64,000 nucleotides of DNA from Oligoflexales bacterium (GCA_965215515.1 OZ244057.1:1824001-1888000); one strand, 5' to 3'; numbered from the stretch's first letter, positions 35,302-52,103 are shown. Notes: a model not told the origin generated them from the letters alone. Made by a program: numbers and translations.

Positions 35302-35775
35302 ATGGTTTATTTTTATCTACGCAGGGGAGTATCGGCTGTGTCGGTTAATTTTATCAGCAATGCCGTATTGTTGTTGTTTTTGCTCTGTGCTTGTGGTGTG
35401 CCTGAGGGTGGAATTTCTAGTGCGAGAAAAGAGGAGCAGTGGCATGCTGCTGACGGGGAGCAGGGGAGGAATAGCTATCGTTTGGAGTTGAGCAAGGTAG
35501 TTGATGTCGCGGTAGGCGAAAAATTCTATGTCGCGGCGGCGCTGCATGACTGTGCAGGACGGGTATTGACGGGCGAGGCCGCGACGGCGGAGATAGCTTT
35601 GCACATCAGGGATGGGGACGAGTATAGTCCTTTGGCAACCGTCAAAGCTCGCGAAGGGGTGGCACACTTTTACGTGATGATGCAAAAAGCGGGCAACAAC
35701 TACGTGTTGCAAGCGGAAGCGGAGATTGCGGGGGAAACTGTCGTTGCCCTGAGCGGGCCGTTCAACTCCCCCTAG
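35302..35775 (+). CDS. Hypothetical lipoprotein, probably Ig-like
   Basis: LLCAC lipobox, beta-rich; start uncertain. Confidence 0.6.
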   Translation: MVYFYLRRGVSAVSVNFISNAVLLLFLLCACGVPEGGISSARKEEQWHAADGEQGRNSYRLELSKVVDVAVGEKFYVAAALHDCAGRVLTGEAATAEIALHIRDGDEYSPLATVKAREGVAHFYVMMQKAGNNYVLQAEAEIAGETVVALSGPFNSP

Positions 35776-35938
35776 GAATATGTCGCTTGCGCGGTATGAT
35801 TGCCATTCAGGAACGTGATCGTGACCGCCGTTTCTGTACGCAGCATGGTATGCCGCAGGGGAGAGCGCACACGCAGGACGAAGAGATGTTGCAACGGTTC
35901 GACAAAGCAACTCCGCTTGTCCGCAGCTAGATCAGTAC
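35772..35938 (-). pseudogene. mtaB: Duplicated mtaB 3' remnant with internal 534-bp deletion
   Basis: 35774-35877 matches 50771-50874; 35873-35938 matches 51404-51469. Confidence 0.9.
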
Positions 35939-35975
35939 TGTAGATGCCCCCGTAAAAAACGGACACCCTATCGGC
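35939..35975 (+). mobile_element. IS2-like (IS3 family) left end
   Basis: TGTAGATGCCCCCGTAAAAAACGGACACCCTATCGGC; related copies at 17241, 43014, 46097 and 50481. Confidence 0.8.
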
Positions 35976-36018
35976 AGTTCGGAGGCACTCAAGAGAGAGG
36001 AAGCGGGGGTATAGTTCA

Positions 36019-37233
36019 CTACTCTTTTTTCAGTTCACCCCAGGTGGTGGTTTGTTTGCCTTTTGCTGCGACAGGCATAGCCTTGGGGTGGGCGGCGATG
36101 AGGGTGACGATACGGGGCAGCTCAAGCTGGCGGGCGAGGTCTAGTGCCCTATGCCCGTCTGCGTTTTTGAGGAAGGGTTTGATGTCCTGGTGTGCAATGA
36201 GCCTAGCCACTACGTCATCGAAGCGCTTTAGCACCGCGTGGTGCAGGGCGGTCAGGCCGTCTTTATCCTGGGCGTTGATGTCGATACCTTGATGCTTGCT
36301 AAGCTCAATAACTAGTTCCTTGTAGCCTTTCAGTACCGCGTGGTGCAGGGCGGTCAGGCCGTCTTTATCCTGGGCGTTGATGTCGATGTCACGATCGTCG
36401 TTGAGCACCTCGCCTGCCCAGAAATCACTTCTTCCGTACTTGATCTCGAAGATCAGCGGGTATTTGGGGCGGCAACCCATGGGGTCTTCCTCTAACTCAT
36501 ATTCGGGAAAGGCACAGTCTTCCAGTGGCAGTCCCTCGTGCACATGCCTGTAGAGCCAGATGATACCGTTGATGTCGTCTTTGAAAAGCACGGCAAGGCC
36601 GTCAAGTGCGATAGGATCTTCGTGTCCTCTTATATCACCGCTCAAGGCCATCACGGAATTTGGCTGCGTGCCTCTAGTGTGCTTTAGACCGCCTTTACTG
36701 ACCCCTGGCTTGCCCCGCTCCTTCGTAGTAATGTAGGTATCGTCAAGACCGAAAACGTGCCCCATTTCGTGCATAAGGCTGTTCATAAGTTGTATCACTG
36801 CCTTCGTGCCGCTGCGCAGATTGATGCCAGGTGTGGCTCCTCCTACGAGTGCTGTGGAAGCGCCGAGACCGCAGTGGAAGATGATCCACATATCCCCTGC
36901 GGCAGGGCGAGGATCGGCAACAAGCCGATAACGAAAATCTTTGACGATCTGCTTGTCAGTGTAGTCACGCAACGGTTGTAACCAGGTACGCAAGGCTTTG
37001 CTGACTGCGCCAGTAAGTCTCTCATCGTTGTTTCTCGCCTCGGGCGGACAGTCGTCGCCGTAGCCGTAATTGATAACCAAGTGTGGTGCATGCACCTTGT
37101 TGATGAGCGCACCATGGAGACGCAATCGCTGCTCGTGATGAAGGGCCATGAACTTCTTGTCCGCGGGAGGCGGCGGACGCAGAATACAGGAAGTGAGGAG
37201 CACAAAAGAAAGGATGGTTAGCAGTTTCATCAT
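36019..37233 (-). CDS. Lipoprotein metzincin peptidase with ankyrin repeats, cassette 1
   Basis: AGGAG + MMKLL..LLTSC lipobox, HEMGHVFGLDD, Met-turn NSVM, INAQDKDGLTALHHAV x2, C-terminal KGKQTTTWGELKKE. Confidence 0.88.
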   Translation of the reverse strand: MMKLLTILSFVLLTSCILRPPPPADKKFMALHHEQRLRLHGALINKVHAPHLVINYGYGDDCPPEARNNDERLTGAVSKALRTWLQPLRDYTDKQIVKDFRYRLVADPRPAAGDMWIIFHCGLGASTALVGGATPGINLRSGTKAVIQLMNSLMHEMGHVFGLDDTYITTKERGKPGVSKGGLKHTRGTQPNSVMALSGDIRGHEDPIALDGLAVLFKDDINGIIWLYRHVHEGLPLEDCAFPEYELEEDPMGCRPKYPLIFEIKYGRSDFWAGEVLNDDRDIDINAQDKDGLTALHHAVLKGYKELVIELSKHQGIDINAQDKDGLTALHHAVLKRFDDVVARLIAHQDIKPFLKNADGHRALDLARQLELPRIVTLIAAHPKAMPVAAKGKQTTTWGELKKE

Positions 37234-37249
37234 GGTTCTCCTTGTATTA

Positions 37250-40200
37250 CTACTCAAAAAGAAGTGGAGCAGCGTTGGCACAGTTATCGTTCGATGCGCA
37301 TGAAACTGGAGGATGGCTACTATCTTTTTGGCATCCATTCCCACTATCACCAATTTCGTTAAGCAGACTGCTCTTGATATTTTCTAGGAAAATTTCCACA
37401 CCAGCATCATCAGCTGCTGTCGTCAGCAAATTGCGCCCAATCTGCTCGAGGCAGTCGCGACTTTGGGAAGTTAGTGCACCTGCCTCGTCAGGGGGGTTGT
37501 CACCACATTCCGATGCTGATGCTGCTGCAGCTCTTATCATATCTCCTCTCGTGCAGGTGAGGCTATTATTTTTCTTAGCGCAACCAGTCTTATCTCCTGC
37601 CATACTGTCTGTACGAGCAGCGTTATAGGCATTGACGATACAACCTTTGTATAATTCATGTAGTTGCGGCGTTGGCGGCGGCGGTGGCGGTTCAAGGGGA
37701 GTACACGTGCATGTGAATGCGTAGGTCTTTCCTGCCACCTGATCAGCGTTAAATGTTCCTAAGCAGTATTCTTCTGCGTAGATATACGGAACATCTGCAA
37801 ACCCTTCCACCGTTACACCATCGTGCGTGTAGGTTGCACACTTACTATTACATTCGCAATAAAAATTTGGGGGATTGCCAGATAAAATAAAACTACCGCC
37901 CTCACTGTTGCACGCCTCTTCTGCAATTTCAACAGTTTCACCATCTCTGTATCTTGTGCATGTATTTTCCTCCAGTTTGTTATCTGTCTCGCAAGGATTA
38001 TGTACATCATCAGGGCAATCTCGTTCAAGCACGGACGCACTTTGGTCGGTGCGAATAGGGATGCAGACATTTGTCTTACCTTCTTCGCAGGGGTTGTTGC
38101 ACGATACGGTGACTACCTGCTGTTGTTTGCAGTTACCGTTACCATTTAGATCTATGCAATTTCCCCAATTGTCAGGATCTGCTACGTGTGTTGGGCAATT
38201 TTGTGGGTGAGGAGGAGTCGTTTTACCGAAGACTCTTCGTGTAGCCATACCCATAGGCTTATTATGATCAGGACAGCTAGTTGGTGTGCATTTATTGGTC
38301 GTCACAGCCGTTTGTTCCTTACACTGACATGTGTATCTAGACACGGTCACCGTCGGCGACCAAGCACCGATCTCAGGTCTGCAGGAGCATTGGGGAGTAG
38401 GTGTTTTTTCGGGGAGTGTTGCGGCAGCATCTGACGGTTCTTCGGAGCACTCACACTCCCCGCTAGCCGAGTTCCAGTAGACTTTGCGGGAATCATCGCC
38501 ACAGCCGCCGTCTGCATGAGAGTTCATATCATCAGAAGCATCACAGCAGTAATTACCGTTAGTGTTCTCAGTGCATCCTTCGGGTGGCGGCGTAACAACT
38601 CCCCCTTTTGCGCACTCACACCTAGGAGCAGGGGGAACAGTATCCCCGTTCCAATTCACCGTGTAGTCCTCCAGACAGTCACTGCTTGGTCGTAGTTTGA
38701 CCTCATGATCATCTGCATCGGCACAACAGTAGTTGCTGTTAGTGTACTCATTGCATTCAGGCGTTGGCGTTGGCGTTGGTGGCGGAGGAGGCGGATCAGT
38801 AGTATCAACACAGCCAGTGCAGGCAACAGCCTCACTAGTGGGGCAATTCTTACGAACAAACCCCACGCCTACAGGGCAAGGACCGTCACTACTGACACCA
38901 GCACAGGGATCACTGCAGGTTCTGCTGCGCATTTCGTGGCAGTACATAGGATCACTCGAATCTGTTACAAAAGCATTTCTTGCACAGGCACTCCATTCAC
39001 CCCAGTCCCGACAATTGGCAGCACAATTGACTGGTTTCTCGCCGCAGACAACTCGGCTAAATTCAGTATGCTCATCGGGACAACTGAAGCCATCCTGACA
39101 ACCAGCTGGGTTATTTGGATGTGGTTCCCAATCTGCAGTAGCATTCCCTGTTTGCGTTACCTCCTTACAGGTGTAATCTTCACTGAGAGGATTCCAAGTT
39201 ATCTCGGCACTCATCACCTTGCACACACAAATACATTCAGTCCTGGTGTCACCTTCTCTGCACGGACATTCGGTGGTAGTGCACTCAGCGATAGGCTTTA
39301 ATCCTTCTTTAGTGCGGATAATGATGGTTTCTGTCTCTTCTGGGCATGTTGTTCCTGGTGGGAGAGTACCAATAGGTGTGCAAGTGATAGTGGTAGTTTT
39401 TGTCTCCGTGTAATTTTTGCATGCACATACGTCTGCTGGCTTTTCTGCTGCTATCCATCCCCCTTCACTACTCACGCAATCACACCGCCCTGGTGGTGTT
39501 GGTGTTGGTGTTGGTGTTGGTGTCGGATCAGGCGTTGGCGTTGGTGGCGTTGGCGTTGGTGGCGTTGGCGTTGGCGTTGGTGGCGTTGGTGTTATGCAAA
39601 CCTTCGTCCCTATAACTGTTACCCGCCTATTTCGTGCCTCTCTTGGACAGGGAGGCCATCCTCTACAGGTTCTCGTCTGTGGTTCATATTCATATCTCGA
39701 TTCGCCCTCACAAGCGTTGGGATCTGTCCTACTATCACTCACCGCAGGCTGCCAAGGAGTACATCCGCATCTCCTACAGCAGCCCTTATTAGGGGCACTA
39801 TCATTGAACGTCCCCCACCACCCGTTGCAGGTTAAGCTAAATGTATTAGCCACCTCGGTATTACCATCACAGCACTGTGTTGTCGGATCACATGGTGGCG
39901 GAGGCGGTGGTGTTGGTGTTGGTGTTGGCGGCGGCGGCGGAGGTGGTGCCCCTATTCCTGCGGGGCAGTACTTGGTGATGTTGCGGCAGACCGTGGGCTT
40001 GGCATCGCGCAACGCCATCCTCACCGCATCACCCCGCGTATAGTCACACTCCTCTCTCCCCCCGCCATGACAATCGGGATAAATATACCTGCCCTCAGCA
40101 TCGGCATAGGCAAAGGCAACCGCAACATTACCAGGACGCAACTGATAAAAATAACGTAACTGTCCACAGGCTTGCGGACGGAAACCCAGATGATTATTCA

Positions 40201-40522
40201 ACCCCTGATCGCGATCATCGGCGTAGTCCCCACAATCACCCCTAGTACCGTCCTCATTCTTGTAGCCGATACCACCATCAGGGGCGAGCAACGCGGAGCC
40301 ACTGTAGTACCTGAAGTGCTCGATCTTATACACCGCCTGCAGACTAGCCAGATGGGCGAGGTTGCTCTTCGCCTCCCCCCGCCGTGCCTGCGCCAAGAAA
40401 GCATGATAACGCGGCAGCGCCAAGGCGACCAAAATGCCGATAACCGCCACCGCGACCATCAACTCCACCAAACTTAAACCCGCTCTCGTCCGCACCACTT
40501 CCCTTTTTTTGGCTAAAAACAA
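37250..40522 (-). CDS. Giant type IV pilin with Pro/Thr hinges and Cys-rich (TSP1-like) body, cassette 1
   Basis: Class III signal RAG|LSLVELMVAVAVIGILVALALPRY; WGEWSAC..RSRTC; true start probably GTG at 40498/40495. Confidence 0.88.
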   Translation of the reverse strand: MFLAKKREVVRTRAGLSLVELMVAVAVIGILVALALPRYHAFLAQARRGEAKSNLAHLASLQAVYKIEHFRYYSGSALLAPDGGIGYKNEDGTRGDCGDYADDRDQGLNNHLGFRPQACGQLRYFYQLRPGNVAVAFAYADAEGRYIYPDCHGGGREECDYTRGDAVRMALRDAKPTVCRNITKYCPAGIGAPPPPPPPTPTPTPPPPPPCDPTTQCCDGNTEVANTFSLTCNGWWGTFNDSAPNKGCCRRCGCTPWQPAVSDSRTDPNACEGESRYEYEPQTRTCRGWPPCPREARNRRVTVIGTKVCITPTPPTPTPTPPTPTPPTPTPDPTPTPTPTPTPPGRCDCVSSEGGWIAAEKPADVCACKNYTETKTTTITCTPIGTLPPGTTCPEETETIIIRTKEGLKPIAECTTTECPCREGDTRTECICVCKVMSAEITWNPLSEDYTCKEVTQTGNATADWEPHPNNPAGCQDGFSCPDEHTEFSRVVCGEKPVNCAANCRDWGEWSACARNAFVTDSSDPMYCHEMRSRTCSDPCAGVSSDGPCPVGVGFVRKNCPTSEAVACTGCVDTTDPPPPPPTPTPTPECNEYTNSNYCCADADDHEVKLRPSSDCLEDYTVNWNGDTVPPAPRCECAKGGVVTPPPEGCTENTNGNYCCDASDDMNSHADGGCGDDSRKVYWNSASGECECSEEPSDAAATLPEKTPTPQCSCRPEIGAWSPTVTVSRYTCQCKEQTAVTTNKCTPTSCPDHNKPMGMATRRVFGKTTPPHPQNCPTHVADPDNWGNCIDLNGNGNCKQQQVVTVSCNNPCEEGKTNVCIPIRTDQSASVLERDCPDDVHNPCETDNKLEENTCTRYRDGETVEIAEEACNSEGGSFILSGNPPNFYCECNSKCATYTHDGVTVEGFADVPYIYAEEYCLGTFNADQVAGKTYAFTCTCTPLEPPPPPPTPQLHELYKGCIVNAYNAARTDSMAGDKTGCAKKNNSLTCTRGDMIRAAAASASECGDNPPDEAGALTSQSRDCLEQIGRNLLTTAADDAGVEIFLENIKSSLLNEIGDSGNGCQKDSSHPPVSCASNDNCANAAPLLFE
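39490..39592. repeat. In-frame (GGYGTT)n/GGT simple repeat encoding a Pro-Thr hinge
   Basis: Visible hexamer runs; similar tracts at 38760-38793, 39893-39947 and 49729-49793. Confidence 0.9.
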
Positions 40523-40540
40523 AACTTTCCCGCGCGAACA

Positions 40541-40566
40541 TCATCGGCGTTTTTTTTTTCACTTTA
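40541..40566 (-). promoter_or_regulatory. Sigma-28-like pilin promoter with A10 tract in the spacer (14 nt)
   Basis: TAAA-gtg(A)10c-GCCGATGA. Confidence 0.62.
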
Positions 40567-40629
40567 GTTACGTTGCCAAAACCCCCAAATTACCATTGTC
40601 TACCTGCAATATTGCGGGAGAGAGGGAAG

Positions 40630-40688
40630 ATGGGGCGCTGCCCCATACCCCGCACAACTTTTTGAAAAAAGTTGGAGCAAAAACTCAA
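40630..40688. repeat. Palindromic REP/MITE-like repeat, copy B
   Basis: TGGGGCGCTGCCCCA hairpin plus CAACTTTTTgaAAAAAGTTG; inverted copy of 3314-3370. Confidence 0.75.
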
Positions 40689-40697
40689 TTCCTGAGT

Positions 40698-40929
40698 ACA
40701 GCCCCGCAAGCAATGGTATGGCAGAGGCGTTCGTGAAAACTTTTAAACGAGACTATGCCTATGTCAGTGACTTGAGTTCAGCAGATGTGGTTGAGCAAAA
40801 ATTGCATGTCTGGTTTGATGAATACAACAACGTTGCACCACACAAAGCACTTGGCATGATATCACCTAGGATGTATATGGAGTTCCAACAGGCTGGGTAG
40901 ACTGTCCGTTTTTTGGGGGCAACTCCACA
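40698..40929 (+). mobile_element. IS2-like transposase 3' fragment with right end
   Basis: SNGMAEAFVKTFKRDY..; nearly identical to the reverse complement of 44979-45210; ends GGGGGCAACTCCACA. Confidence 0.88.
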
Positions 40930-41070
40930 TCCCATACCGACGCAACATTGAACTTCACACCGAAGTGGGTGGCAAGTTTAGCAGCAGATTTCAGTTTGCT
41001 GGTAGGCACAGCAAGCCTTGCCAGGACGCAGTTTTTCAAGATGCGATTATTGAGCTCAGCGTGTCGTCCT
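40930..41070 (-). mobile_element. IS1634-like transposase internal fragment
   Basis: Translates ILKNCVLARLAVPTSKLKSAAKLATHFG, similar to IS1634 N-terminal motifs as I recall them. Confidence 0.5.
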
Positions 41071-41105
41071 TGTAGATGCAGCCTCTTCTTGCGATACACG
41101 CCCTA
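41071..41105 (-). mobile_element. 35-bp doubly deleted derivative of the 17241-17511 IS2/IS5 remnant
   Basis: Equals 17241-17249 + 17311-17334 + 17510-17511. Confidence 0.8.
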
Positions 41106-41228
41106 GGCTTGTTATGCGAATTGTTAACAGCCGACCAGGTATTCGTTTTTCAGAGGTATCTACAGATGGCATCTTTGTTGCAGGGATTATCACGAGGACT
41201 GTGTTGTTTCTTACGTTGCGGAGGTTTC

Positions 41229-41717
41229 GTGAAAAAGTTTATCGATCACCTAAGTTGCTTTAATTTCAATGAATCCCAGTATTGGGTAGTTCCTGATGTA
41301 TACCGTCGCGGGGACTTTGAAGTCAGTTGGTTCAGAACTGCGATGGGCAATCCCGTGTGGAAAGTGCGAGCGCGTGGCGAAAATGCTGAGTGGGTGGAAT
41401 TCGACAACCGTGATGCAGTAGCGAAACTGTCGGAGTGCGGTGTTGATCTGCTCGCGTTGCGTAACTGCATCGCGGAGACGGTATTGAGGCAAGCGGTCTA
41501 TGCGGCGCAAATCAGTAAAAGTGCTAAAGAATTGCTAGGTGACCAAAATGTTGACAGTGCTGTGGCCGAGAACGAACTGTTCGTCGCCGATCTCGTCAGC
41601 AAAATCAAGGATACGCTAGCTAACACCCATACCGAGCAGGAGAAGAACGATACTCCCGTTCGTCATCTAAAACTTGTTACACAGCCTCAAAAGCCACTAT
41701 GCGGCGACACGCCCTAG
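41229..41717 (+). CDS. Hypothetical protein
   Basis: GGAGG + GTG, 162 aa; stop lies in an IS5-like end GACACGCCCTAG. Confidence 0.65.
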   Translation: MKKFIDHLSCFNFNESQYWVVPDVYRRGDFEVSWFRTAMGNPVWKVRARGENAEWVEFDNRDAVAKLSECGVDLLALRNCIAETVLRQAVYAAQISKSAKELLGDQNVDSAVAENELFVADLVSKIKDTLANTHTEQEKNDTPVRHLKLVTQPQKPLCGDTP

Positions 41718-42326
41718 TCGCGTCAAAACCTTGCCCCGACATTGAAGTGGAAACGCCCGCGCTGATACCAGTGCTGCTTGGCGAGCCTGCGATCGCGGCA
41801 GTGCCCTGAGTTCCGAGAGGGGGAGAAGATGGGGCCGCTACAGGCAGCCGTACCCGCTGAATGACTTCACTGTTATCTCCGTTGACCCTGCTGCATTTGC
41901 TCGTACTGAGCTAGGAATTGTACACCATCGAATCCCAACAAGCCTCCTACTCCTCGCTTCTTAATTCTAGAAGTGTGAACATTGTGTGAAATTAGCAGAC
42001 GATCCATTTTGTCTGCATCAGGCTCGTTGTGCATCATATAAAAAATTTTAACGGTAAAATCTTGCTCTATTTCTTCAAGTTTCGTGAGATATTTGTGGAG
42101 ATATTCCTATCTGAGCTAGAGTGGAAAGGGAAGTATTATTCTTATTCTTGCAATAGAGATAGGGTTGTAGAACGAGCTGAGGAAAATCGATAGATATGAG
42201 TATGTATGGGTTTGTTACAATTCCTCTCACTTCACCTCAATCGGTATCTGTTCCTGAATAACTTTGGGCATGGTAGCAAGGCCGATCTGTAGGCACAGGT
42301 TGTTGTCACTAGATGATTGCCGTTGA

Positions 42327-42620
42327 TTAGGCCGCTTTTCTTGGCTTGACAGAGAATTCAAGACCAAAAACGGCAAGGCCTTTCTCCAGTCGCCTATATC
42401 CCCACGATTTGTTGCCACTGACGAATTCAGATACGTTTGAGATTGGTATGCCTGACTTGTCGGAAAACTCTTTGATGCCCATGCTTCTAATAGCAAAACG
42501 CAGAGCAGCAACGATATTTCCCCGCAATTCAAGGCTAACCATTACCAGTTCCCTAGCAAAATCAGGGTCACGCATTTTTTTCGCCATTGCCTCACTGTGT
42601 GATTTGCTCCTGTTCGTCAT
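42327..42620 (-). CDS. HTH antitoxin (addiction module antidote)
   Basis: MTNRSKSHSE..DPDFA.., GIKEFSDKSGIPISNVS HTH; overlaps the toxin 3' end. Confidence 0.82.
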   Translation of the reverse strand: MTNRSKSHSEAMAKKMRDPDFARELVMVSLELRGNIVAALRFAIRSMGIKEFSDKSGIPISNVSEFVSGNKSWGYRRLEKGLAVFGLEFSVKPRKAA

Positions 42621-42918
42621 AGTTCCTCCAGTAGTTCTTTGCTCTCTCAATATCAGCTGACTGAGTACGTTTGCTGCCGCCAAGCAGCACGATTAGCCCA
42701 TTTAACTTGCCAAAATAGACACGCATAGTGCCATGTTTATAGTTGATCTTGATTTCCCAAACACCATCACCAAGCGACTTTACATTCTTGCGGCTACCAC
42801 CACAGGCCACTCGATCGATATAATCATAAACCGCAATCTGACTTCGCCTTTCGAGCTTGTCCACCCAGTCTTCAAAAGGACACCTTCCGTTTTCAAGTCT
42901 GTAGTAGACAACGTCCAT
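42592..42918 (-). CDS. RelE/ParE-superfamily toxin (addiction module killer)
   Basis: NGRCPFEDW, KSLGDGVWEIKI, RVYFG, LLGGSKRTQSADIERAK. Confidence 0.88.
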   Translation of the reverse strand: MDVVYYRLENGRCPFEDWVDKLERRSQIAVYDYIDRVACGGSRKNVKSLGDGVWEIKINYKHGTMRVYFGKLNGLIVLLGGSKRTQSADIERAKNYWRNYDEQEQITQ

Positions 42919-42999
42919 GAGGCTATACTTACCTAAAAAGGAAAGTTTGTCAACACCAAGTTAGCTCAAACATATCTAACATGGGATCGCAACCCTGTC

Positions 43000-43014
43000 A
43001 CGGGGGCATCTACA
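43000..43014 (-). mobile_element. IS2-like left-end stub
   Basis: ACGGGGGCATCTACA is the reverse complement of TGTAGATGCCCCCGT. Confidence 0.7.
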
Positions 43015-43089
43015 GCTATCGACAAGCCAATTGCTAACGCATTGCTACGATAGATAAGTGCTAGCAAAGCCAGCTTCTTTTACCTTGTA

Positions 43090-43688
43090 GTGGTTTTTGG
43101 ACGACAGTTAGACTCAACCCGTTCTTCCCCATCTATCCTGATGGATACTTTACTGATCCCAGCTTTGATTGCAAAAACATGCCAGCACCTTTCAATTACT
43201 CCAGCTCTGAGATGGTTGATGAGATTGCGGATCATGGTGTGCCAGCTATTTTAGCAGGTATCGTCAGGCTATCGAGCTTTTCCCTCAATCAGATAGAGAA
43301 AGCCTCTGGGCGCAACTTGAGGGAATTTTACCGTGACGACACAAAGAAAACTGCTATCTTTACCGAGAAGAAATCCCGTGATTTTCACTATAGTGATGAT
43401 GAGATTAGAGCCTACTATGAGCGTATTCATGCCAAGTGTGTGCAAAGAGGCATCCAGTTTACTACCTGCTACATCGGCAATGGCGAAAGTCATTTTTGGA
43501 AAGATCAAGACTTGTGGTCTAATAAAAAAGATTGTTGCAATGCCATCGGTCGTGTCGAGAAGTTTGCTAAAACAAAAACGGCTCGTGATATCAATTGGGA
43601 TGTGAGGATGAAACACACTAACAACAAGTGCCTAAAGCCGTTTTTGGGGAAGAAGGGAATTGTTTACACTAAAAATATTTTGGTTTGA
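43090..43688 (+). pseudogene. C-terminal remnant, possibly of a radical SAM (SPL-like) protein
   Basis: Frame reads GFWTTVRLNPFFPIYPDGYF..KKDCC; no N-terminus or CxxxCxxC; lies next to an IS end. Confidence 0.4.
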
Positions 43689-43731
43689 GATTTTCCCAGT
43701 GAATATGTAGCAAGCTTAGTGACTTCAAGCG

Positions 43732-44978
43732 TTAAGATGCATCTCGCAATAAATCGCGAGTATACATCAAGTCAACAGTATAACCATGCTCATTTTCCAA
43801 TCTATCAGCTTCTTCATGAGCATCTTTTGAGAAGCTGTGGGCTATGATTATACCTGCACCACGCTTTTGTATGTGTTTGAGAAAAGCATCAATAACAGGT
43901 CTACCGACTCTGTATGACTTTTTTACCTGTATAGGAATGTGATCATGTGTGTACCCATCAACACCACCATCTCTTCTTTGCTGAGTATTTGGTGTGCCTC
44001 CAATAAGAGATACTATGTGTTTTTCAAATTCAAAAGGAGATAGTGACATAACTTGACCTTTGGATAGACTATTATCTCGGATAACTTCTATCCTCAACTT
44101 GTGATCACGAACCATCCTTTCTTTGATAACATTTATGGCATCTTTGCTAACATCAATCCCCAACCAGCGTCGTCCAAGCTGCTGTGCAGAACTTATCGTT
44201 GTTCCACAACCACAAAAGGCATCAAAAACCAAGTTGCCCTTGTTAGTGAAAGATTCTATAAGACGATTCAAGAGGGCTAGTGGCTTTTGTGTTGGGTAGC
44301 CAACCCGTTCCTTAGCTCCTGATCTTGTTCCAAAACCAAGAATATCTGTCCAGACAGAGCCAACAGCACTCTTATACTTATCTAAGTAGTACTTTTTCCT
44401 GAGCTTTCCACCACTTGTAGTGTATATCATTCCCTTTTTCTTCATTTTTGCTATTGATGTTTCTGAATAATCCCCGATGGGAGCAGTTCTGAATTTTCTT
44501 CTTGTATTAGGTTCTATCTGTGAAAACGTTTTCTTCTGCTCATCAGTCAACGGTACATGCTGTTGACGAAATACAAATTTTTGCGTTTTTGCATAAACCA
44601 GTATCGTATCATGATTTCTTGGAAATTGTTTTGAGGTCTTTTTCGCTCCCTTACCAGCTGGATCTCGTTGCCATATTATTTCGTTAATCATGTTGTTCTG
44701 CCCAAAAATTTTGTCCAACTCTACTTTTGCGTAGTGAGAGGAACGATGATCTAAGTGTAAACAGAAAACACCACTATCCTTTAGCAGCCTATAGCATTCC
44801 CTTAATCTAGGAGTCAACCACTTTATGTATGCGTTAATGCCTCCCATCCATGCGTCGTTGAAGGAGACAACTTTCTTTCCCCATGCCTTATCCATGCGTA
44901 CTGAATTTGAACAGAAAGGTGGATCAATGTAGATAAAATCAATTTTGTTTGCTTTTAGTGTCTTCATAACTGCAAGGT
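43732..44978 (-). CDS. Beta-class N6/N4 DNA methyltransferase with C-terminal Mrr-like domain, 5' end clipped by IS
   Basis: IYIDPPF, YPTQKP, DAFCGCGTT, DGGVDG..IQVK; the IS end sits just before NLAVMK. Confidence 0.85.
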
Positions 44979-45566
44979 TGTGGAGTTGCCCCCGTAGAGC
45001 GGACAGTCTACCCAGCCTGTTGAAACTCCATATACATCCTAGGTGACATCATGCCAAGTGCTTTGTGTGGTGCAACGTTGTTGTATTCATCAAACCAGAC
45101 ATGCAATTTTTGCTCAACCACATCCGCTGAACTCAAGTCACTGACATAGGCATAGTCTCGTTTAAAAGTTTTCACGAACGCCTCCGCCATACCATTGCTT
45201 GCGGGGCTGTATGGTCTCGTAGTACAAACATCAAAGCCCAGATACTTGGCAAACGTTGTCGTCTGCCTAGCAACGTAACAGGGGACATTATCCGATAGCC
45301 ACTGTATTCTGTGCGGCAATTCATCGCCAAAACGTGCACCTACACAGTCAACCATCAAGTCTCTAACAAGACCACCATCAACGCCGCATGTCGAGCACGC
45401 CCAGCTGATTACTTCACGATCGTGGCAATCCATGGCAAACACAACCTCGAGACACTCCCCGTTATCGCACTGGATTCTGAAAGTATCCGAACACCATCGA
45501 GTGTTGCTCCTCAACGTAGCCACCTTACCTTCGTGAACCCTTGTTGGCCTCGACGCATGCCTTCTT
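44979..45566 (-). mobile_element. IS2-like (IS3 family) OrfB integrase-core fragment with right end
   Basis: SNTRWCSD, DCHDRE, WLSDN, SNGMAEAFVKT; end TGTGGAGTTGCCCCC. Confidence 0.92.
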
Positions 45567-46096
45567 CTGAGTTCCGCAGGTAAATTTCCCAACATACTGT
45601 AATTATAGGGATATGCTTCCTGTGTAGGGCACTACATGTGCGCAAGTTTTGCGCAGTAGTTTAGAGCTTAAAGGGTGCAGAGGAGCATTTCAGTCCGACG
45701 ATGCGGTAGAGGTTTTTGGCCCGCGGGGAGGCTTTTATGTTAGGCATGCCATACAGCTCTCCTGTCTTGATGTGCCCTGAGACGATCGCCTTTGCGGTGG
45801 AATATGGGACGCATTTTGAGATCGTGTTTGGAGCTGCGAAAAGCTTCTTCGATCTCCCATAGGCGACGGTAAGAGGCTATTACCTTCCCCGCGGGTTGCT
45901 TGGAATTGGTAATGTACCCGCTGATGCCATCCCAGGCAGCATCACTGGCTGCCTTGTCTCGATTGATTTTAGCTGTCTTCTTGCTCCCAGTACCGAATTG
46001 GAGATATTTTTTGCTGCCGCTGTTCTTGACCAGATCTTTCACCGCTACCTCACCCTCGACCTTAGCCATCCTCTCCAGACGATCTAACAAACGAGC
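45567..46096 (-). mobile_element. IS1634-family transposase 3' remnant nested in the IS2-like element
   Basis: WDGISGYITN, YRRLWEIEEAFRSSKHDLKMRPIFH. Confidence 0.88.
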
Positions 46097-46133
46097 TGTA
46101 GATGCCACCGTAAAGAGCGGACACCCTATCGGC
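46097..46133 (+). mobile_element. IS2-like left end bounding cassette 2
   Basis: TGTAGATGCCACCGTAAAGAGCGGACACCCTATCGGC. Confidence 0.8.
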
Positions 46134-46222
46134 TTCTAACAATCACGTAGAGGAGTTCAGTTACGGTTAGTGATCGTTTCGTAAGTTCGGAAGCACCTGA
46201 TAGAGAGAAGGCGGGGGCATAG

Positions 46223-47401
46223 TCACTCCTCTTTTTTCAGTTCACCCCAGGTGGTGGTTTGTTTGCCCTTTGCTGCGACAGGCATAGCCTTGGGGTGGGC
46301 GGCGATGAGGGTGACGATACGCTTCATATTGCGTTGTTGGGCGAGATCTAGTGCCCTATGCCCGTCTGCGTTTTTGAGGAAGGGTTTGATGTCCTGGTGT
46401 GCAATGAGCCTAGCCACCAGGTCTTTGGAGCCGCTCAACACTGCGTAGTGTAGGGCGGTCATCCCTTTCGCATCACGGACATTGATTTTGATATCCTGGT
46501 GGCTGGTGAGTCTAGCTACCAGTATCAAGTAGCCCTTGAGCACGGCATGGTGCAGGGCGGTCAGACCTTCCTTGTCTTGGACGTTGATGTCGATGTCAGG
46601 ATCGTTCTTGAGCACCTCGCGGGCCCAGAAGGATTTCCCTTGTTTGATCTCGAAGAGCAGTGGGTGTTTAGGGCGGCAACCCCTCGGGGTTTCCTCCAGT
46701 TCGTAATCAGGAAAAAGACACTCTTCCAGCGGTAAACCCTCGTGCCTGTGTCTGTAGAGCCAGACGATGCCGTTGATGTCGTCTTGGCCGAGATCGCCAA
46801 TCTTATTCACAAAATGTGAGTGTGAACTCATTATGGAAGCGGGCTGTGTGCCCTTAGTGCTAGGTAAACCGCCTGTGCTAGGGCCTGGCTTGCCCTTGTA
46901 GGTGTCGGAGAGACCGAAAGCATGCCCAACTTCGTGGATAAGGTTGTTCATAAAGATTGCTGTCCTCATGCCGCGACGCATGTTGATGACAGGGCGATTG
47001 TCCCTCAGTTGAGCATTGGAGGTATCAAAATTACAGTGGAAAATGACCCGCAGATCTTCGTCGTGGGGGCGGGGAACGGCGACGCGCTGAGAGCGGAAAT
47101 CTTCAACGATCGGCTTGTCAGTGTAGTCGCGCAATGGCTGCAACCAGGCACGTAAGGCTTTGCCGATGGCGGCGGTAAGTGCCTCGTCGTTATCCCTTTC
47201 CTCGGGCGGACAATTGTCACCGTAGGTATAAGCGATGTCCAGGTGCGGCGCGTGCACCTTATTGATGAGCTGACCATCAAGATTAAAACCTTCCCGCCAC
47301 CAGCGATGTTGCTGCGCGATAAACTTCGTATCCGTGCTCTGCGGACGCACTATGCAGGACAATAACAACAGAGCGAACGACAAAAAAAGTGAGTGTCTCA
47401 T
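46223..47401 (-). CDS. Lipoprotein metzincin peptidase with ankyrin repeats, cassette 2
   Basis: LLLSC lipobox, HEVGHAFGLSD, ASIM, ankyrin repeats, KGKQTTTWGELKKEE. Confidence 0.88.
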   Translation of the reverse strand: MRHSLFLSFALLLLSCIVRPQSTDTKFIAQQHRWWREGFNLDGQLINKVHAPHLDIAYTYGDNCPPEERDNDEALTAAIGKALRAWLQPLRDYTDKPIVEDFRSQRVAVPRPHDEDLRVIFHCNFDTSNAQLRDNRPVINMRRGMRTAIFMNNLIHEVGHAFGLSDTYKGKPGPSTGGLPSTKGTQPASIMSSHSHFVNKIGDLGQDDINGIVWLYRHRHEGLPLEECLFPDYELEETPRGCRPKHPLLFEIKQGKSFWAREVLKNDPDIDINVQDKEGLTALHHAVLKGYLILVARLTSHQDIKINVRDAKGMTALHYAVLSGSKDLVARLIAHQDIKPFLKNADGHRALDLAQQRNMKRIVTLIAAHPKAMPVAAKGKQTTTWGELKKEE

Positions 47402-47413
47402 GAGCGTATCCTC

Positions 47414-50368
47414 CTAAGGACAGACTTCGTTATCCTGCAAGGTTGTAACACTAGCAGCAGCGCAACCGCCGAAAGCACATCGATCGAGTGCTTCGAAGAG
47501 ATAGGGAGTTGATTCGTCGAGAAGGCTTGGAACTGGATGCTCAGGATCGTTGTCTAGTAGTCGTCTATCTATAAATTTTCTACATTCTATGCTCATGCTA
47601 CTCTTGCTTGTTGTACCCGCATAGAAATAATCCCACCACAGTTTTTGAGAAAGAGCACCCTGGTACTGATCCCCTTCAATAATGCCACCTGCAAATAGAG
47701 AATTGGGGTCGTCGTTTACAACGTCTGCATATGTTTGACAATCAACAGGAATCCTCCCTGTACTCCCGCTAGGAGTACCATATTTGAGAATGTTTTGTAC
47801 CTCACCAAGCTTGAGATGACTATAGTTAGTGCAAGCGTCCATGGCTGTAACGGGGGCGTAGCAGTCGCACGTTCCTTTGCCAGGAGACCATAAGAAAGGT
47901 GCATAGCCCTCGGGGCAGGAGGGAACACATGGCTCACCTTCTTTTGGTGGTTGTGTCGTTGGTGTTGGTGTAGGCTTCACAATGCAAATACAGTTGAAGG
48001 AGAGGGGTCTATTATTCACTTGATTTTTCTCTAGGGTGTGACCATCACCACCACCTTCGCATCCATGTGTTGCGGCATCGACAGTTATCGGCAACTGTAG
48101 AGAAGGAGTAGGGCTATCGTCACTATTTCTGTACGATATACACTGCCCCACACAGGTACATGCAATGGATGGCGAATCACCCGTTGATGCAAAGTGACCG
48201 CCTAGACCTTCACAGTGACTCTCTACACCATAAACCGTCTTTACGCTGGGAGCAGTAGTATAACTACCTGTGTAGCTGACGCTATCACAGACAGGATCAG
48301 GCGGTGTCTCTGTCGGAGGTAGAGAGCCGCTGTATTTGCAACTCCCCGTACACTTATCAGTGTCGAAACTCCAGCTCATACTAGCCCCGCTGCAGGTGCA
48401 GCCGCCACTGTTCCACGTGCCGCTAGCTTTGGTGCATGCAGTTTTCTCAGCGTCGTCAGAACACACGCACTTGCCTGTCGAACCAACCCCGAACACAGAC
48501 AGCGCCTTGTTGAGCAGGCTGAATGAAGTACGAGCAGAGAAGTTCCATACCTTCTTGGGATCAGAGCAAGTGCACTTGCACCTATTATCGTTCCAGGTTG
48601 CCTCACTCACGTTGCCGCATGCGTTTTTCTCATTACCAGTACTATCAGGGCACTGACACGTACAATTACTCGAATTGTATACTCTGTTCACGTATGTCGT
48701 CCCATCGCTGCTGTTGCAATTGCAGCCACTACCATATGTAGCCCTTTTCTGATCCTGACAGCTGCCGCCCGTCGTCCCATCCAAACAGGCATTCTCACAC
48801 TCTTCCACTTGCACCGCCTGCCCTCCCGAGCATTCTTCAGTTTCAGTAATGGGTTCTGTTGGCTGTTCTGTCTCTGACTTCTTCTTACACACGCACTTAC
48901 CCTCCATCCAGATGACGGTGTAGTCTGAAGTTGGATTTATACAGGGGTCATCTTGAAGCACGCCTTCGTCGCTGCAGCAGTAGTGGGTATTGTGGTTGTC
49001 CTCCTTGCATCCTTCGGGCTCCTCAGTTTCAATGGCGGAGCAGTCACACGCATCTGGGTCCAAGTCCGTGTTCCAGCTGATTGTGTATGCATCATCACAG
49101 TTATCACCGCTGGGAATGACACCACCAGTACCTTCCTCACTGCAGCAGTAGTTGCTCATGTTGCGCTGTCGGCATTCTTGGCCTTCATCCTTAGGACTGC
49201 AAGTGCAGTTAGCACTATCAACCCCGTGTGGGCAATCAGTAGCAGTAAGTGGACACTCGCACTGGCAGGTCGTGGAATTCCAAGTCGGTGTGGCAGAGGG
49301 GCAGGTGATGCCAGCTTCTGCAGCAGTAGCATATAGACACTGGCACTGGCAGGTTGTGGAATTCCATGTGTAGTTGCCAGTACAAGACTGTGGAGCACAT
49401 CCACATTGGCAGTGACTGGGAATCCAGGTGTAACCTGCAGCACAATCATCTTTGCTTTTTTTACATATACAACAATCAGGCTTACTTATATCTGTTTCCC
49501 ACCCGCCAACTTTGGCGCAGGTGGTGCATGGGGGGGGGGTAGTACACGTACAAGTAGTACCATCCAGCACTGCTGGGGGAGTGCAGGTACGATTGCAGGC
49601 ACAACAATCGTTATGGTGAGCAGTAACATCAAAGCTCCAGTCGGAGTTTAACCCAGCTTTATCGCAGGTTGTCTTTGGGTTTCCATACTCTCCTTCAGGA
49701 CAACACTGCGTTGCTGGGTTGCATGTCGGAGGTGGCGGCGTTGGTGTCGGATCAGGCGGTGGTGTTGGTGTTGGCGGAGGTGGCGGCGGTGGTGCCCCCA
49801 TTCCCGCGGGGCAGTACTTGGTGATGTTGCGGCAGACCGTGGGCTTGGCATCGCGCAACGCCATCCTCACCGCATCACCCCGCGTATAGTCACACTCCTC
49901 TCTCCCCCCGCCATGACAATCGGGATAAATATACCTGCCCTCATCATCGGCATACGCAAAGGCAACCGCCTCATTACCAGGACGTAACTGATAAAAATAA
50001 CGTAACTGTCCACAGGCTTGCGGACGGAAACCCAGATGGTTATTCAACCCCAGATCGCGATCATCGGCGTAGTCCCCACAATCACCCCTAGTACCGTCCT
50101 CATTCTTGTAGCCGATACCACCATCAGGGGCGAGCAACGCGGAGCCACTGTAGTACCTGAAGTGCTCGATCTTATACACCGCCTGCAGACTAGCCAGATG
50201 GGCGAGGTTGCTCTTCGCCTCCCCCCGCCGTGCCTGCGCCAAGAAAGCATGATAACGCGGCAGCGCCAAGGCAACCAAAATGCCGATAACCGCCACCGCG
50301 ACCATCAACTCCACCAAACTTAAACCCGCTCTCGTCCGCACCACTTCCCTTTTTTTGGCTAAAAACAA
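47414..50368 (-). CDS. Giant type IV pilin with Cys-rich CXCXC-repeat body, cassette 2
   Basis: Same N-terminal ~190 aa as cassette 1 (4 differences seen); WNSTTCQCQC, WIPSHCQCGC, WNDNRCKCTC. Confidence 0.88.
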   Translation of the reverse strand: MFLAKKREVVRTRAGLSLVELMVAVAVIGILVALALPRYHAFLAQARRGEAKSNLAHLASLQAVYKIEHFRYYSGSALLAPDGGIGYKNEDGTRGDCGDYADDRDLGLNNHLGFRPQACGQLRYFYQLRPGNEAVAFAYADDEGRYIYPDCHGGGREECDYTRGDAVRMALRDAKPTVCRNITKYCPAGMGAPPPPPPPTPTPPPDPTPTPPPPTCNPATQCCPEGEYGNPKTTCDKAGLNSDWSFDVTAHHNDCCACNRTCTPPAVLDGTTCTCTTPPPCTTCAKVGGWETDISKPDCCICKKSKDDCAAGYTWIPSHCQCGCAPQSCTGNYTWNSTTCQCQCLYATAAEAGITCPSATPTWNSTTCQCECPLTATDCPHGVDSANCTCSPKDEGQECRQRNMSNYCCSEEGTGGVIPSGDNCDDAYTISWNTDLDPDACDCSAIETEEPEGCKEDNHNTHYCCSDEGVLQDDPCINPTSDYTVIWMEGKCVCKKKSETEQPTEPITETEECSGGQAVQVEECENACLDGTTGGSCQDQKRATYGSGCNCNSSDGTTYVNRVYNSSNCTCQCPDSTGNEKNACGNVSEATWNDNRCKCTCSDPKKVWNFSARTSFSLLNKALSVFGVGSTGKCVCSDDAEKTACTKASGTWNSGGCTCSGASMSWSFDTDKCTGSCKYSGSLPPTETPPDPVCDSVSYTGSYTTAPSVKTVYGVESHCEGLGGHFASTGDSPSIACTCVGQCISYRNSDDSPTPSLQLPITVDAATHGCEGGGDGHTLEKNQVNNRPLSFNCICIVKPTPTPTTQPPKEGEPCVPSCPEGYAPFLWSPGKGTCDCYAPVTAMDACTNYSHLKLGEVQNILKYGTPSGSTGRIPVDCQTYADVVNDDPNSLFAGGIIEGDQYQGALSQKLWWDYFYAGTTSKSSMSIECRKFIDRRLLDNDPEHPVPSLLDESTPYLFEALDRCAFGGCAAASVTTLQDNEVCP

Positions 50369-50386
50369 AACTTCCCCGCGCGAACG

Positions 50387-50411
50387 TCATCGGCGTTTTT
50401 TTTTCACTTTA
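50387..50411 (-). promoter_or_regulatory. Sigma-28-like pilin promoter with A9 tract in the spacer (13 nt)
   Basis: TAAA-gtg(A)9c-GCCGATGA. Confidence 0.58.
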
Positions 50412-50468
50412 GTTACGTTGCCAAAAGCCCCAAATTACAGTTGTCTGCCTGCAATATTGCGGGAGAGA

Positions 50469-50481
50469 GGGGGCATCTACA
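50469..50481 (-). mobile_element. IS2-like left-end stub closing cassette 2
   Basis: GGGGGCATCTACA lies exactly where homology with cassette 1 ends. Confidence 0.65.
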
Positions 50482-50762: not shown

Positions 50763-52103
50763 CTATCCCGAGGAATGTGTCGCCTGTGCGGTGTGATCGT
50801 CGTTCAGGAACGTGATGGTGACCGCCGTTTCTGTGCGCAGCATGGTATGCCGCAGGGGAGAGCGCACACGCAGGTAGTTGCGGCTGTAGCCGAGCATCTC
50901 GTCGCCCTCAGGGCGTTCCCACAGCACGTGGGTTTTTTGTCCCACAAACCTTTGATAGTAGGCTCGTTTAAGCTGTTGCGAGAGCGCGCTGAGCTGCTTG
51001 CCGCGCGCTTTGATGGTAGCGGAAGGCACGTGCCCTGGCATGCGTGCCGCAAGCGTGTTAGGACGGGGCGAATAAGGGAAAACATGCAAGTAATGCAAGC
51101 CTACCTGTCGTGCACAAGCAAGGGTCGCACAGTGGTCGCGCTCGTCCTCGCGGGGAAAACCACAGATAACATCGCTGCCAAACATCGCGTCAGGAAAAAG
51201 TCGCCGTGCTGCCTTGAGACGAGCGCAGTAGTGCTCCACACTGTATTTGCGCCGCATTTTGCGTAAAATTTTGTTGCTCCCCGATTGCAGCGGCAGATGA
51301 AAGTGAGGACAAAAAACATCACGGTGCTCGGCCAACACTTGCAACAGAGCATCGCTCAATTCGGACGGTTCGAGTGACGAAATACGCAGGCGGCGCAGAC
51401 GAGGCAGGGCGAAGAGACGTTGCAACAGTTCGACAAAGCAACTCCGCTTGTCCGCGGCTAGATCAGCACCGTAATCGCCGAGATGCACGCCCGTCAGGAT
51501 TATCTCGCCACACCCCTGCTCGGTCAGTGCTTTAACTTGTGCAATAACCTTCGCCGAGGGCACACTCAGCGATGCCCCACGCGCATAGGGGATGATGCAA
51601 TAGGTGCAAAACCCGTTGCAGCCATCCTGTATCTTGACATACTGGCGGGTAGTGTTGCTGTGGACATAATCGCTGAGTGTCTGTGCCAGCTTGAAGTGTG
51701 CCTGCCTGTTAGCGGTGACGGGTTTGGCATCGGCGGGTAGTTTGTCGCCCTGTCCACGCCGCTGCAAGCGCGCGTTAAGCAGCGCGACGAGATCTGCTTT
51801 GTGACTGTTGGGGACGACGAAGTCGATGTCGGGATGTTCGCTCAGCGGGCCTGAGTTGGTCTGTGCATAACATCCCGTGATAACGAGAAACGCCTGCGGG
51901 TTAAGACGACGCACGCGCCGCGCATAGTAGAGTGCCTCCTGTTCGGCACGTGCAGTGACGCTACAGCTGTTAATGATGGTGATCTCTGCTTGCGCTATGT
52001 CCTCGCTCAATTCAAACCCGCCTCGACACAGCTGAAAGTTAAGGACATGCGCATCGAAGGCGTTGACCTTGCAACCCAGTGTTTTGATAAAAACCGATGG
52101 CAT
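50763..52103 (-). CDS. mtaB: tRNA t6A37 methylthiotransferase
   Basis: TLGCKVN, INSCSVT, KIQDGCNGFCTYC, LTGVHLG, HVFPYSPR. Confidence 0.94.
   Translation of the reverse strand: MPSVFIKTLGCKVNAFDAHVLNFQLCRGGFELSEDIAQAEITIINSCSVTARAEQEALYYARRVRRLNPQAFLVITGCYAQTNSGPLSEHPDIDFVVPNSHKADLVALLNARLQRRGQGDKLPADAKPVTANRQAHFKLAQTLSDYVHSNTTRQYVKIQDGCNGFCTYCIIPYARGASLSVPSAKVIAQVKALTEQGCGEIILTGVHLGDYGADLAADKRSCFVELLQRLFALPRLRRLRISSLEPSELSDALLQVLAEHRDVFCPHFHLPLQSGSNKILRKMRRKYSVEHYCARLKAARRLFPDAMFGSDVICGFPREDERDHCATLACARQVGLHYLHVFPYSPRPNTLAARMPGHVPSATIKARGKQLSALSQQLKRAYYQRFVGQKTHVLWERPEGDEMLGYSRNYLRVRSPLRHTMLRTETAVTITFLNDDHTAQATHSSG

Follow-up and report, generated by a model that had tools for sequence, protein, structure and literature searches.

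Few bacterial surface machines are as widespread as type IV pili, and the source of their binding specificity is an open question to which modular pilins are the current answer. In the Neisseria pilE/pilS system and in PilV of the R64 shufflon, a constant pilin N-terminus is combined with exchangeable C-terminal parts through DNA recombination. Modular pilins form an established and widespread class of pilus-presented adhesins, and the most extreme one named in the survey by Raynaud et al. 2021 has 860 residues (PMC8179133). According to a further report, the secreted protein CofJ is attached through its N-terminal 24 residues to the minor pilin CofB, and one operon encodes both proteins (PMC6048534). 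Here, we describe a locus of an Oligoflexales bacterium (GCA_965215515.1, OZ244057.1:1824001-1888000) in which the gene for a predicted giant, Cys-rich type IV pilin is followed by that of a partner protein with metzincin and ankyrin parts, and which belongs to a family of 13 such pairs. The 64-kb stretch analyzed is referred to as the window, and all coordinates are those of the whole window unless marked G000:C1, which denotes the one-contig source genome (2,180,710 bases). Copies are named after their approximate kb position in G000 (c0099, c1343, etc.), and the genomes of the relatives are G001, G002 and G003.

A family of pilin and metzincin-ankyrin pairs

The preliminary description of the window had reported a two-gene operon occurring twice, and the same pilin and partner pair was indeed found at both places on the minus strand (ORFs, i.e., open reading frames, at 37250-40522 and 36019-37233 for unit A, and at 47414-50368 and 46223-47401 for unit B; Table 1). 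The gaps from pilin to partner were exactly 16 nt (A) and 12 nt (B), with a Shine-Dalgarno sequence ahead of the second gene (AGGAG and GAGGA, respectively). Pilins A and B shared 98% identity in their first ~200 aa and diverged past a Pro/Thr linker, and the two partners were 63% identical, with an identical tail.

A tblastn search combined with ORF tracing showed that the family comprises 13 pilin and partner pairs in G000 (at ~99, 240, 416, 1041, 1343, 1491, 1569, 1600, 1604, 1864, 1874, 1919 and 1947 kb), which together occupy ~53 kb or 2.4% of the genome. The order was the same in 13/13, pilin then partner on the same strand, and the reading frames were open in 12/13 pilins (that of c1600 is broken) and in all 13 partners. 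Contigs from three samples showed 0 differences to the unique parts of the region; those of 4 sequencing runs were short pieces, with differences that were mostly paralogue-derived. Two incomplete copies were also observed: at G000:C1:2170997-2172453, an orphan partner precedes a pilin gene of which the leader and 30 codons remain, joined to a HicA-like ORF next to a HicB-like gene, and at G000:C1:964642-964971, a deletion remnant joins pilin codon ~50 to the last ~47 codons of the partner.

Gene 1 is laid out as a conserved pilin head of ~180–190 aa, a Pro/Thr linker and 400–1000 aa of orphan modules and is, as read from its sequence, a modular type IV pilin sensu Raynaud et al. 2021. Of the giant prepilin reported in the preliminary description, the class III signal and the assignment to the pilin family were confirmed, but its start was not, given that a GTG 27 nt downstream of the TTG is probably the true start codon (40495 in A, 50341 in B). 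In c1343, a stop codon lies just 5' of the position homologous to this GTG, which is therefore the sole possible start in that copy. In c0240, a change from A7 to A8 puts the TTG out of frame, with the remainder of the gene open, and the database gene call for pilin B has 975 aa. Read from the GTG, the sequence begins MRTRAG/LSLVELM, that is, a basic, Gly-ending leader of 6 residues followed by a hydrophobic helix with Glu at +5, a pattern predicted to be a short type IVa-style class III signal. Pilins A and B scored 21.9 and 22.2 bits with PF07963 (N-terminal methylation; cut-off 21.2), and 20.2 and 20.6 bits with TIGR02532 (NCBIfam; cut-off 16.3). In the AlphaFold2 (AF2) model of pilin B, the head has a long helix at its N-terminus and a sheet of four strands, with a predicted local distance difference test (pLDDT) value of 60–80. 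A Cys pair at the C-terminal end of the head, Cys179 and Cys186, was kept in 17/18 aligned heads, the exception being G2_2185k from a relative, which has Arg at 179.

With regard to short motifs, the head common to most G000 copies carries two RGD triplets (residues 94–96 and 163–165 in TTG numbering), both of which are absent from c1343 and from 6/6 heads of the relatives, the second site having x-G-D throughout. RGD also occurs in the C-terminal ...W-G-E-[LI]-K-R-G-D-x of the partners from c1343, G001 and G002. These triplets could be due to chance or represent a cell-attachment motif.

The variable parts of the pilins contained 7.7–10.2% Cys and read as Cys-rich stretches with short repeats (e.g., T-W-N-x-x-x-C-x-C-x-C in pilin B), separated by Pro/Thr linkers. 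At the C-terminus, a domain of ~150 aa was better conserved and occurred in few types. When the variable regions of A and B were compared with Pfam, both as whole pilins and in 23 overlapping windows (E ≤ 1), only chance-level matches were obtained, and the ESM Atlas gave no usable match to the variable region. Homologues of the variable module numbered three, both in a word-seeded search of 5.8 billion proteins and in an exhaustive phmmer search of 1.84 billion representatives, and in each case all of them came from this genome.

As for the machinery such pilins would enter, G000 encodes a single prepilin peptidase (Peptidase_A24), 3 secretins and 8 matches to T2SSE-family ATPases, among them two of ~600 aa and four of 367–385 aa. 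N-terminal methylation motifs were detected 24 times. The short pilins of the genome (165–227 aa) were 37–50% identical to the giant-pilin head, and four minor-pilin-like genes were clustered near one ATPase and one secretin.

Regarding the product of gene 2, the metzincin proposed in the preliminary description was borne out by both motif and fold. The HExxHxxGxxD motif was intact in 13/13 partners; in a 52-row alignment, E157, G159, H160 and G163 were invariant, and H156 and D166 were kept in at least 90% of the rows. A Met residue (Met191), a candidate for the Met-turn 25 residues past the third ligand, was invariant in 52/52 rows, in a stretch modelled with a pLDDT of ~60. The AF2 model of partner B, built on the same 52 rows, had a mean pLDDT of 75.8. 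Foldseek aligned its residues ~36–220 with the catalytic domains of the matrix metalloproteases (MMPs) MMP-7, MMP-10 and MMP-3 (probability 1.0, template modelling score 0.54–0.58) and also matched the model to ankyrin proteins. In the VIA-wide search, MMP-9, MMP-2, MMP-20 and MMP-12 were recovered with Z values of 8.9–9.9 over 137–146 residues, serralysin with 9.1 and adamalysins with 8.0–8.4. On this motif and modelled fold, the partner is a predicted metzincin with an MMP-like fold, placed outside family M10A by the curated model. It is not regarded as a member of M10A because its third zinc ligand position is occupied by Asp, not by His as in that family, and because the score for Peptidase_M10 (PF00413) was below the cut-off (16.7 vs. 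24 bits, E 0.0068, in partner B only). An M6 domain was also matched under the cut-off (E 3e-4).

Ankyrin repeats were above the Pfam cut-off in both window partners (Ank_2, E 1e-24, 87 bits), and the partners carry 2–4 of them ahead of a conserved C-terminal tail. An L-x-[SA]-C-type lipobox-like pattern was seen by eye after the signal peptide in 13/13 partners, the start of the c0240 partner being uncertain, and the partner accordingly reads as a predicted lipid-anchored lipoprotein. The ...K-G-K-x-T-T-T-W-G-E-L-K... tail was kept in homologues from metagenome-assembled genomes (MAGs) titled Candidatus Poribacteria. The general form of this tail, K-x-x-T-T-W-G-x-[LI]-K with a few charged residues, was common to the metzincin-ankyrin family in genomes with Oligoflexales and Poribacteria titles. 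Two unrelated ORFs of G000 with a signal peptide and no Pfam domain (G000:C1:659691-660644, minus strand, and 986628-987557, plus strand) have the same ending. The tail may therefore serve in sorting or anchoring, as a tag not recognised so far.

In the partners of c1491 and c1569 (G000:C1:1486522-1488225 and 1564826-1566505), the tail is replaced by dockerin repeats and a type A sorting domain of the type IX secretion system (T9SS), which suggests that this segment was acquired from elsewhere. Export of the partner family by a T9SS was considered and rejected: these two sorting domains were the only ones in G000, and PorU was not found in that genome. Further relatives of the partner in G000 included a 1731-aa ORF with a metzincin-like region and many ankyrin repeats (G000:C1:957447-961835), as well as distant, unlinked paralogues (25–31% identity) at ~857, 1172, 1237, 1353 and 1376 kb.

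Linkage in relatives and recombination among copies

A lack of further copies or of conserved linkage in relatives, which would have spoken against the preliminary description by its own test, was not observed, the pair being present in G001, G002 and G003. Among 40 related genomes, strong partner matches occurred only in the 3/3 genomes of the same family, those in the rest of the order being weak and partial. G001 harbored 4 pilin and partner pairs, and G002 2 pairs plus 1 orphan partner. In the fragmented assembly of G003, a Cys-rich ORF, cut by the contig start, lay directly upstream of one partner; a separate 858-aa Cys-rich pilin was cut by a contig end, and two more partner genes had no pilin upstream.

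A large protein database returned 599 matches to the partner at E ≤ 0.001, the weaker of which may be due to ankyrin repeats alone. The best 120 of the 599 all covered at least 81% of the query; 'ankyrin repeat domain-containing protein' was the sole informative name in this set, and one other entry was labelled 'hypothetical protein'. A scan of JGI metagenomes with the partner alignment yielded weak or ankyrin-only matches, the best with 29–45% identity over partial stretches. The nearest homologues outside the family were those of the Poribacteria-titled MAGs, with 38–40% identity over the full length, tail included, and with ordinary signal peptides that lack the lipobox Cys. Candidatus Poribacteria is a phylum known mainly from sponges. 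Because the partner family is common to these MAGs, it is a candidate tool for animal-tissue contact, a link to sponges that draws on record titles and general knowledge only.

Within G000, the ~170 nt upstream of the pilin gene and its first 600 nt were 90–99% identical in 12/13 copies, and the last ~110 nt of the partner were conserved in 10/13. The middles consisted of patches with 88–99% DNA identity that were common to changing subsets of copies. For instance, c0240 and c1874 were 99% identical over 444 nt, c1864 and c1947 had three common blocks of 96–99%, and the first 1290 nt of c0416 and c1919 were 99% identical. The pilins of c1041 and c1919 were 93% identical over 2.7 kb, whereas their partners were only 49% identical.

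The phylogenetic trees reflected this pattern. The 12 alike heads formed one tight, G000-specific clade with end branches of 0–0.035, and had a mean synonymous divergence (dS) of 0.10 and a ratio of nonsynonymous to synonymous divergence (dN/dS) of 0.28, i.e., they are under purifying selection. The partner catalytic domains were deep, with end branches of 0.3–1.6, only the near-identical c0416 and c1874 having short ones (0.015 and 0.06). They interleaved with those of G001–G003, c1604 pairing with G2_235k of G002 at 100/100 support, and the partner of c1343, the copy that kept an old head, grouped with those of c1600 and c1919, which have homogenised heads.

A comparison of pilin tails with partner catalytic domains gave a Mantel r of 0.44 (p ~0.005), a moderate correlation with clear exceptions that is expected from linkage alone. 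In the comparison of the two gene trees that the preliminary description had suggested, the variable parts of pilin and partner did not co-diverge. The block across the gene junction is the only one that is co-inherited, the variable blocks of the pilins being otherwise shuffled independently of the partners. In our reading, the cassettes are old; gene conversion has homogenised the 5' ends and, for the most part, the 3' ends too, while the middles are still being reshuffled, and the family grew from 2–4 copies to 13 in the G000 lineage. It offers a clear natural case in which concerted evolution and diversification occur side by side in one operon.

Upstream of the pilin genes, a poly-A tract 55 nt 5' of the start (40550–40559 in cassette A) varied in length among leaders that are otherwise ~95–100% identical. 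In ten copies, a G was followed by 8–11 A; in c0099 and c0240, which have an A in place of that G, the runs were of 10 and 11. A second tract, A7, adjoins the ribosome-binding site and is A8 in c0240. The poly-A tract could be a slippage-prone contingency tract that acts as a switch. No sigma-54 motif could be fitted by eye in the conserved leader.

The limits of the units and of the neighboring features are compiled in Table 1. The borders formed by insertion sequence (IS) ends in the preliminary description were recovered only in part: CTGTAGATGCC does occur at 35938, 46096 and 50472, yet as the end of a repeat found throughout the genome, and a 236-nt inverted-repeat arm lies upstream of pair A instead. 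This 11-mer, which usually continues as CCCGTAAAAAGCGGACACCCTATCG, has 24 copies in the genome, 7 of them adjoining cassettes. Elsewhere in the window, the ORF at 35317-35910 was considered as a copy of the radical-SAM gene at 50763-52103 and rejected, as the two have no protein similarity and only short DNA repeats in common. The large minus-strand ORFs at 13598-17161 (1187 aa) and 68-3040 (990 aa) had no Pfam match at E ≤ 1e-5.

Table 1. Features of the two pilin and partner units and of the adjoining DNA (window coordinates).
Feature	Position	Strand	Description
IS-type repeat end CTGTAGATGCC	35938..35948	+	downstream of cassette A; also at 43005, 46096 and 50472
Partner gene A	36019..37233	-	real ATG at 37233; predicted lipoprotein MMKLL...LLTSC/ILRP; MMP-like metzincin, HEMGHVFGLDD; ankyrin repeats; tail ...KGKQTTTWGELKKE
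Predicted modular type IV pilin A	37250..40495	-	1081 aa from GTG; ORF open from TTG 40522; leader, head, Pro/Thr linkers, orphan Cys-rich modules
Conserved leader / putative promoter, cassette A	40496..40670	-	A7 tract 40504-40510; poly-A 40550-40559; palindrome GCAATATTGC 40606-40615
Mobile island between cassettes, outside the system	40697..45211	.	236-nt inverted-repeat arms, 96% complementary
Two short island ORFs	42327-42918		candidate toxin-antitoxin-like pair, read from translations
DNA methylase-Mrr fusion gene in island	43732-44967		
rve integrase fragment in island	45008-45595		
Partner gene B	46223..47401	-	392 aa; predicted lipoprotein, metzincin-ankyrin, HEVGHAFGLSD; MMP-like catalytic domain
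Predicted modular type IV pilin B	47414..50341	-	975 aa from GTG; ORF open from TTG 50368
Conserved leader / putative promoter, cassette B	50342..50471	-	95% identical to leader A

Readings of the family

The account that we favor, with modest confidence, is that the 13 pairs constitute a modular-pilin repertoire in which exchangeable disulfide-rich modules are carried on type IV pili alongside a co-expressed surface metzincin-ankyrin protease, the whole being varied by recombination. In such a repertoire, the single prepilin peptidase would cut the 6-residue leader, and by means of its ~180-aa head the giant pilin would be built into type IV pili, where it could sit at the tip or be suspended from the shaft on the flexible Pro/Thr linker. 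Binding would fall to the 400–1000 aa of disulfide-rich modules, which would be exposed and exchangeable. Gene 2 would be co-transcribed, and its product, an MMP-like zinc protease with a lipid anchor, would work at this same surface interface, its targets being host matrix, host cells or prey. The 13 copies would recombine homologously through a 5' handle of ~770 nt (leader and head) and a 3' handle of ~110 nt (partner tail), thereby giving rise to the mosaic middles. Display on pili, binding, the protease target and on/off switching are all inferred here from genes.

Several observations weigh against this account. The AF2 model of pilin B, built on an 18-row alignment, had a mean pLDDT of 42.5 and was unusable; since the variable region also has no recognisable domain, the term 'binding module' draws on composition and analogy only. 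The dN/dS of the variable blocks was 0.5–0.86, not above 1, and they therefore show no signal of positive selection. In the Poribacteria-titled MAGs, the partner homologues form tandem arrays of 4–6 genes with no pilin, so the role of the partner need not involve pili. As regards expression, the preliminary description had proposed a shared promoter: the ~170 nt upstream are conserved in 12/13 copies, but a sigma-70 scan of this leader found no consensus site, and the promoter is thus a putative one. Finally, a complete pilin that bears an additional module as bulky as 800 aa may not easily traverse a secretin.

A further-reaching version, which we consider unlikely as it stands, is a variant-receptor system on type IV pili with 13 switchable operons, possibly controlled by the hypermutable poly-A, each combining a shuffled module with its own protease, possibly docked on the C-terminal domain of the pilin. 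If this were true, a small-genome Oligoflexales bacterium could recognise and remodel many host or prey surfaces.

The pairing of pilin tails with partners bears on a different mode of action, in which the C-terminal domain of a tip pilin would dock the N-terminus of the partner, as in CofB-CofJ and TcpB-TcpF, and the protease would be an effector carried or secreted by the pilus. For two types, the tail of the pilin co-varied perfectly with the signal peptide and first mature residues of the partner, tails ...APLLYFGQ going with partners MMKLL...CILRPPPPADKKF and tails ...YLFEALDRC with partners MRHS...CIVRPQSTDTKF. This agrees with the Mantel correlation given above and with the docking described in the CofB-CofJ report (PMC6048534), but is equally expected from the physical linkage of adjacent DNA. 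Moreover, c1919 has a c1041-type tail (71%) and yet a partner that is only 49% identical, the partner reads as a lipoprotein in 13/13 copies, not as a soluble secreted protein, and the pilin leader is short and type IVa-like, whereas CofB and TcpB are type IVb. A complex prediction for partner B (residues 17–392) with the C-terminal domain of pilin B scored 0.00, the partner's own fold being uncertain in that model, and speaks neither for nor against docking. On balance, we find such pilus delivery improbable.

Comparably improbable, in our opinion, is a dedicated processing or shedding protease, i.e., a metzincin that would cut the Pro/Thr linkers of the neighboring pilin and thereby mature or release the Cys-rich modules. 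The tight geometry of units A and B, with 12–16 nt gaps and a Shine-Dalgarno sequence, the pairing in 13/13 copies and in relatives, the long Pro/Thr linkers between the pilin modules and the catalytic motif intact in every partner all fit this proposal. On the other hand, the tandem arrays of the Poribacteria-titled MAGs have no pilin nearby, G000 also contains unlinked distant paralogues and the orphan partner at 2171 kb, and the variable parts of partner and pilin showed no co-divergence. The 'cognate' peptidase of the preliminary description was likewise not supported: the partner lineages are far older than the homogenised heads, c1041 and c1919 combine 93% identical pilins with 49% identical partners, and the partner family also exists in pilin-free arrays. 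Both delivery and processing could nevertheless operate within a modular-pilin repertoire of the kind we favor.

Very improbable, in turn, is a cassette resembling polymorphic toxin-immunity systems, with a constant N-terminal trafficking part, a variable C-terminal toxin and a downstream protective protein. The constant 5' end, the variable C-terminus and the linked downstream gene do recall such cassettes, and ankyrin-repeat proteins serve as immunity proteins in some polymorphic toxin systems, but no toxin domain was found in the 23 windows of the variable regions, the pilin tails are Cys-rich and extracellular in character, and the downstream protein is a predicted exported lipoprotein of 350–550 aa with an intact protease motif and a conserved, not variable, ankyrin part. 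The least credible explanation, repeats that are selfish or decaying and travel with IS elements, or else an error of the assembly, would accommodate the IS-type ends beside several copies, the mobile island between the window copies, the broken pilin of c1600 and the two remnants, but is at odds with the open frames of 12/13 pilins and 13/13 partners, the low dN/dS of the heads, a linkage kept across genera and the absence of differences between contigs of three samples in the unique parts.

Comparison with described systems

The pairing of giant pilin and metzincin-ankyrin lipoprotein matched no described system in the literature searched, and the preliminary description had not recognised it from any either; most subscription journals were outside the scope of this search, which is thus not proof of absence. 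Modular pilins, recombining pilin variants and pairs of tip pilin and secreted protein are already known kinds. What was not found described, and would be new here, is a recombining family of 13 copies in which giant orphan Cys-rich pilins are combined with a fixed metzincin-ankyrin partner. It ties pili genetically to an uncharacterised, MMP-like protease family with ankyrin repeats.

The partner resembles matrixins (M10A) and snapalysin-type metzincins in its catalytic fold, extended zinc motif and conserved Met. In contrast to matrixins, it has no pro-domain with a cysteine switch, and its catalytic domain is fused to ankyrin repeats behind a putative lipobox. Karilysin is a bacterial MMP-like protease with a T9SS-type C-terminal domain, and the c1491 and c1569 partners likewise carry one.

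Variable surface proteins of other kinds offer looser parallels. Giardia variant-specific surface proteins are Cys-rich and variable with a constant anchoring end; they are eukaryotic, have a C-terminal membrane anchor and are expressed one at a time, and the likeness is an analogy only. As for the chimeric MAT fibres of Bdellovibrio, we know of no paired protease. They are reported to be surface fibres from the same phylum, a family in which variable tips are combined with a constant part and for which recognition of many targets has been proposed, and in this they resemble the giant pilins, but they are not pilins (PMC10769870).

As in the type IVb systems CofB-CofJ and TcpB-TcpF, a modular minor pilin of large size is encoded together with another exported protein, which the C-terminal domain of the pilin may dock. 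The pairs differ in the type IVa-style leader, in a partner that is a predicted lipoprotein protease and in the many paralogous pairs. Unlike in pilE/pilS, the same leader, start codon and head are present in 12/13 copies, and the remnants are deletions, not silent cassettes. As no copy lacks a leader, a start codon or a head of its own, the family is not one of pilE/pilS-type silent cassettes. The exchanged units also differ from those of both pilE/pilS and the shufflon in that they are whole multi-module regions plus a second gene.

The closest likeness in architecture is to PilB (vWA) and PilC (lectin) of S. sanguinis and to CofB of enterotoxigenic Escherichia coli, in which a class III signal and pilin module are likewise followed by a linker and one or more extra C-terminal modules (PMC8179133). 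Unlike those modular pilins, the giant pilins have an orphan Cys-rich part of 400–1000 aa with no Pfam match, occur in 13 recombining copies and are always followed by a predicted metzincin-ankyrin lipoprotein. They are, to our knowledge, the largest modular pilins, and the family would be an extreme case of this class, with 13 recombining copies in which the heads are kept alike by gene conversion and the exposed parts are shuffled.

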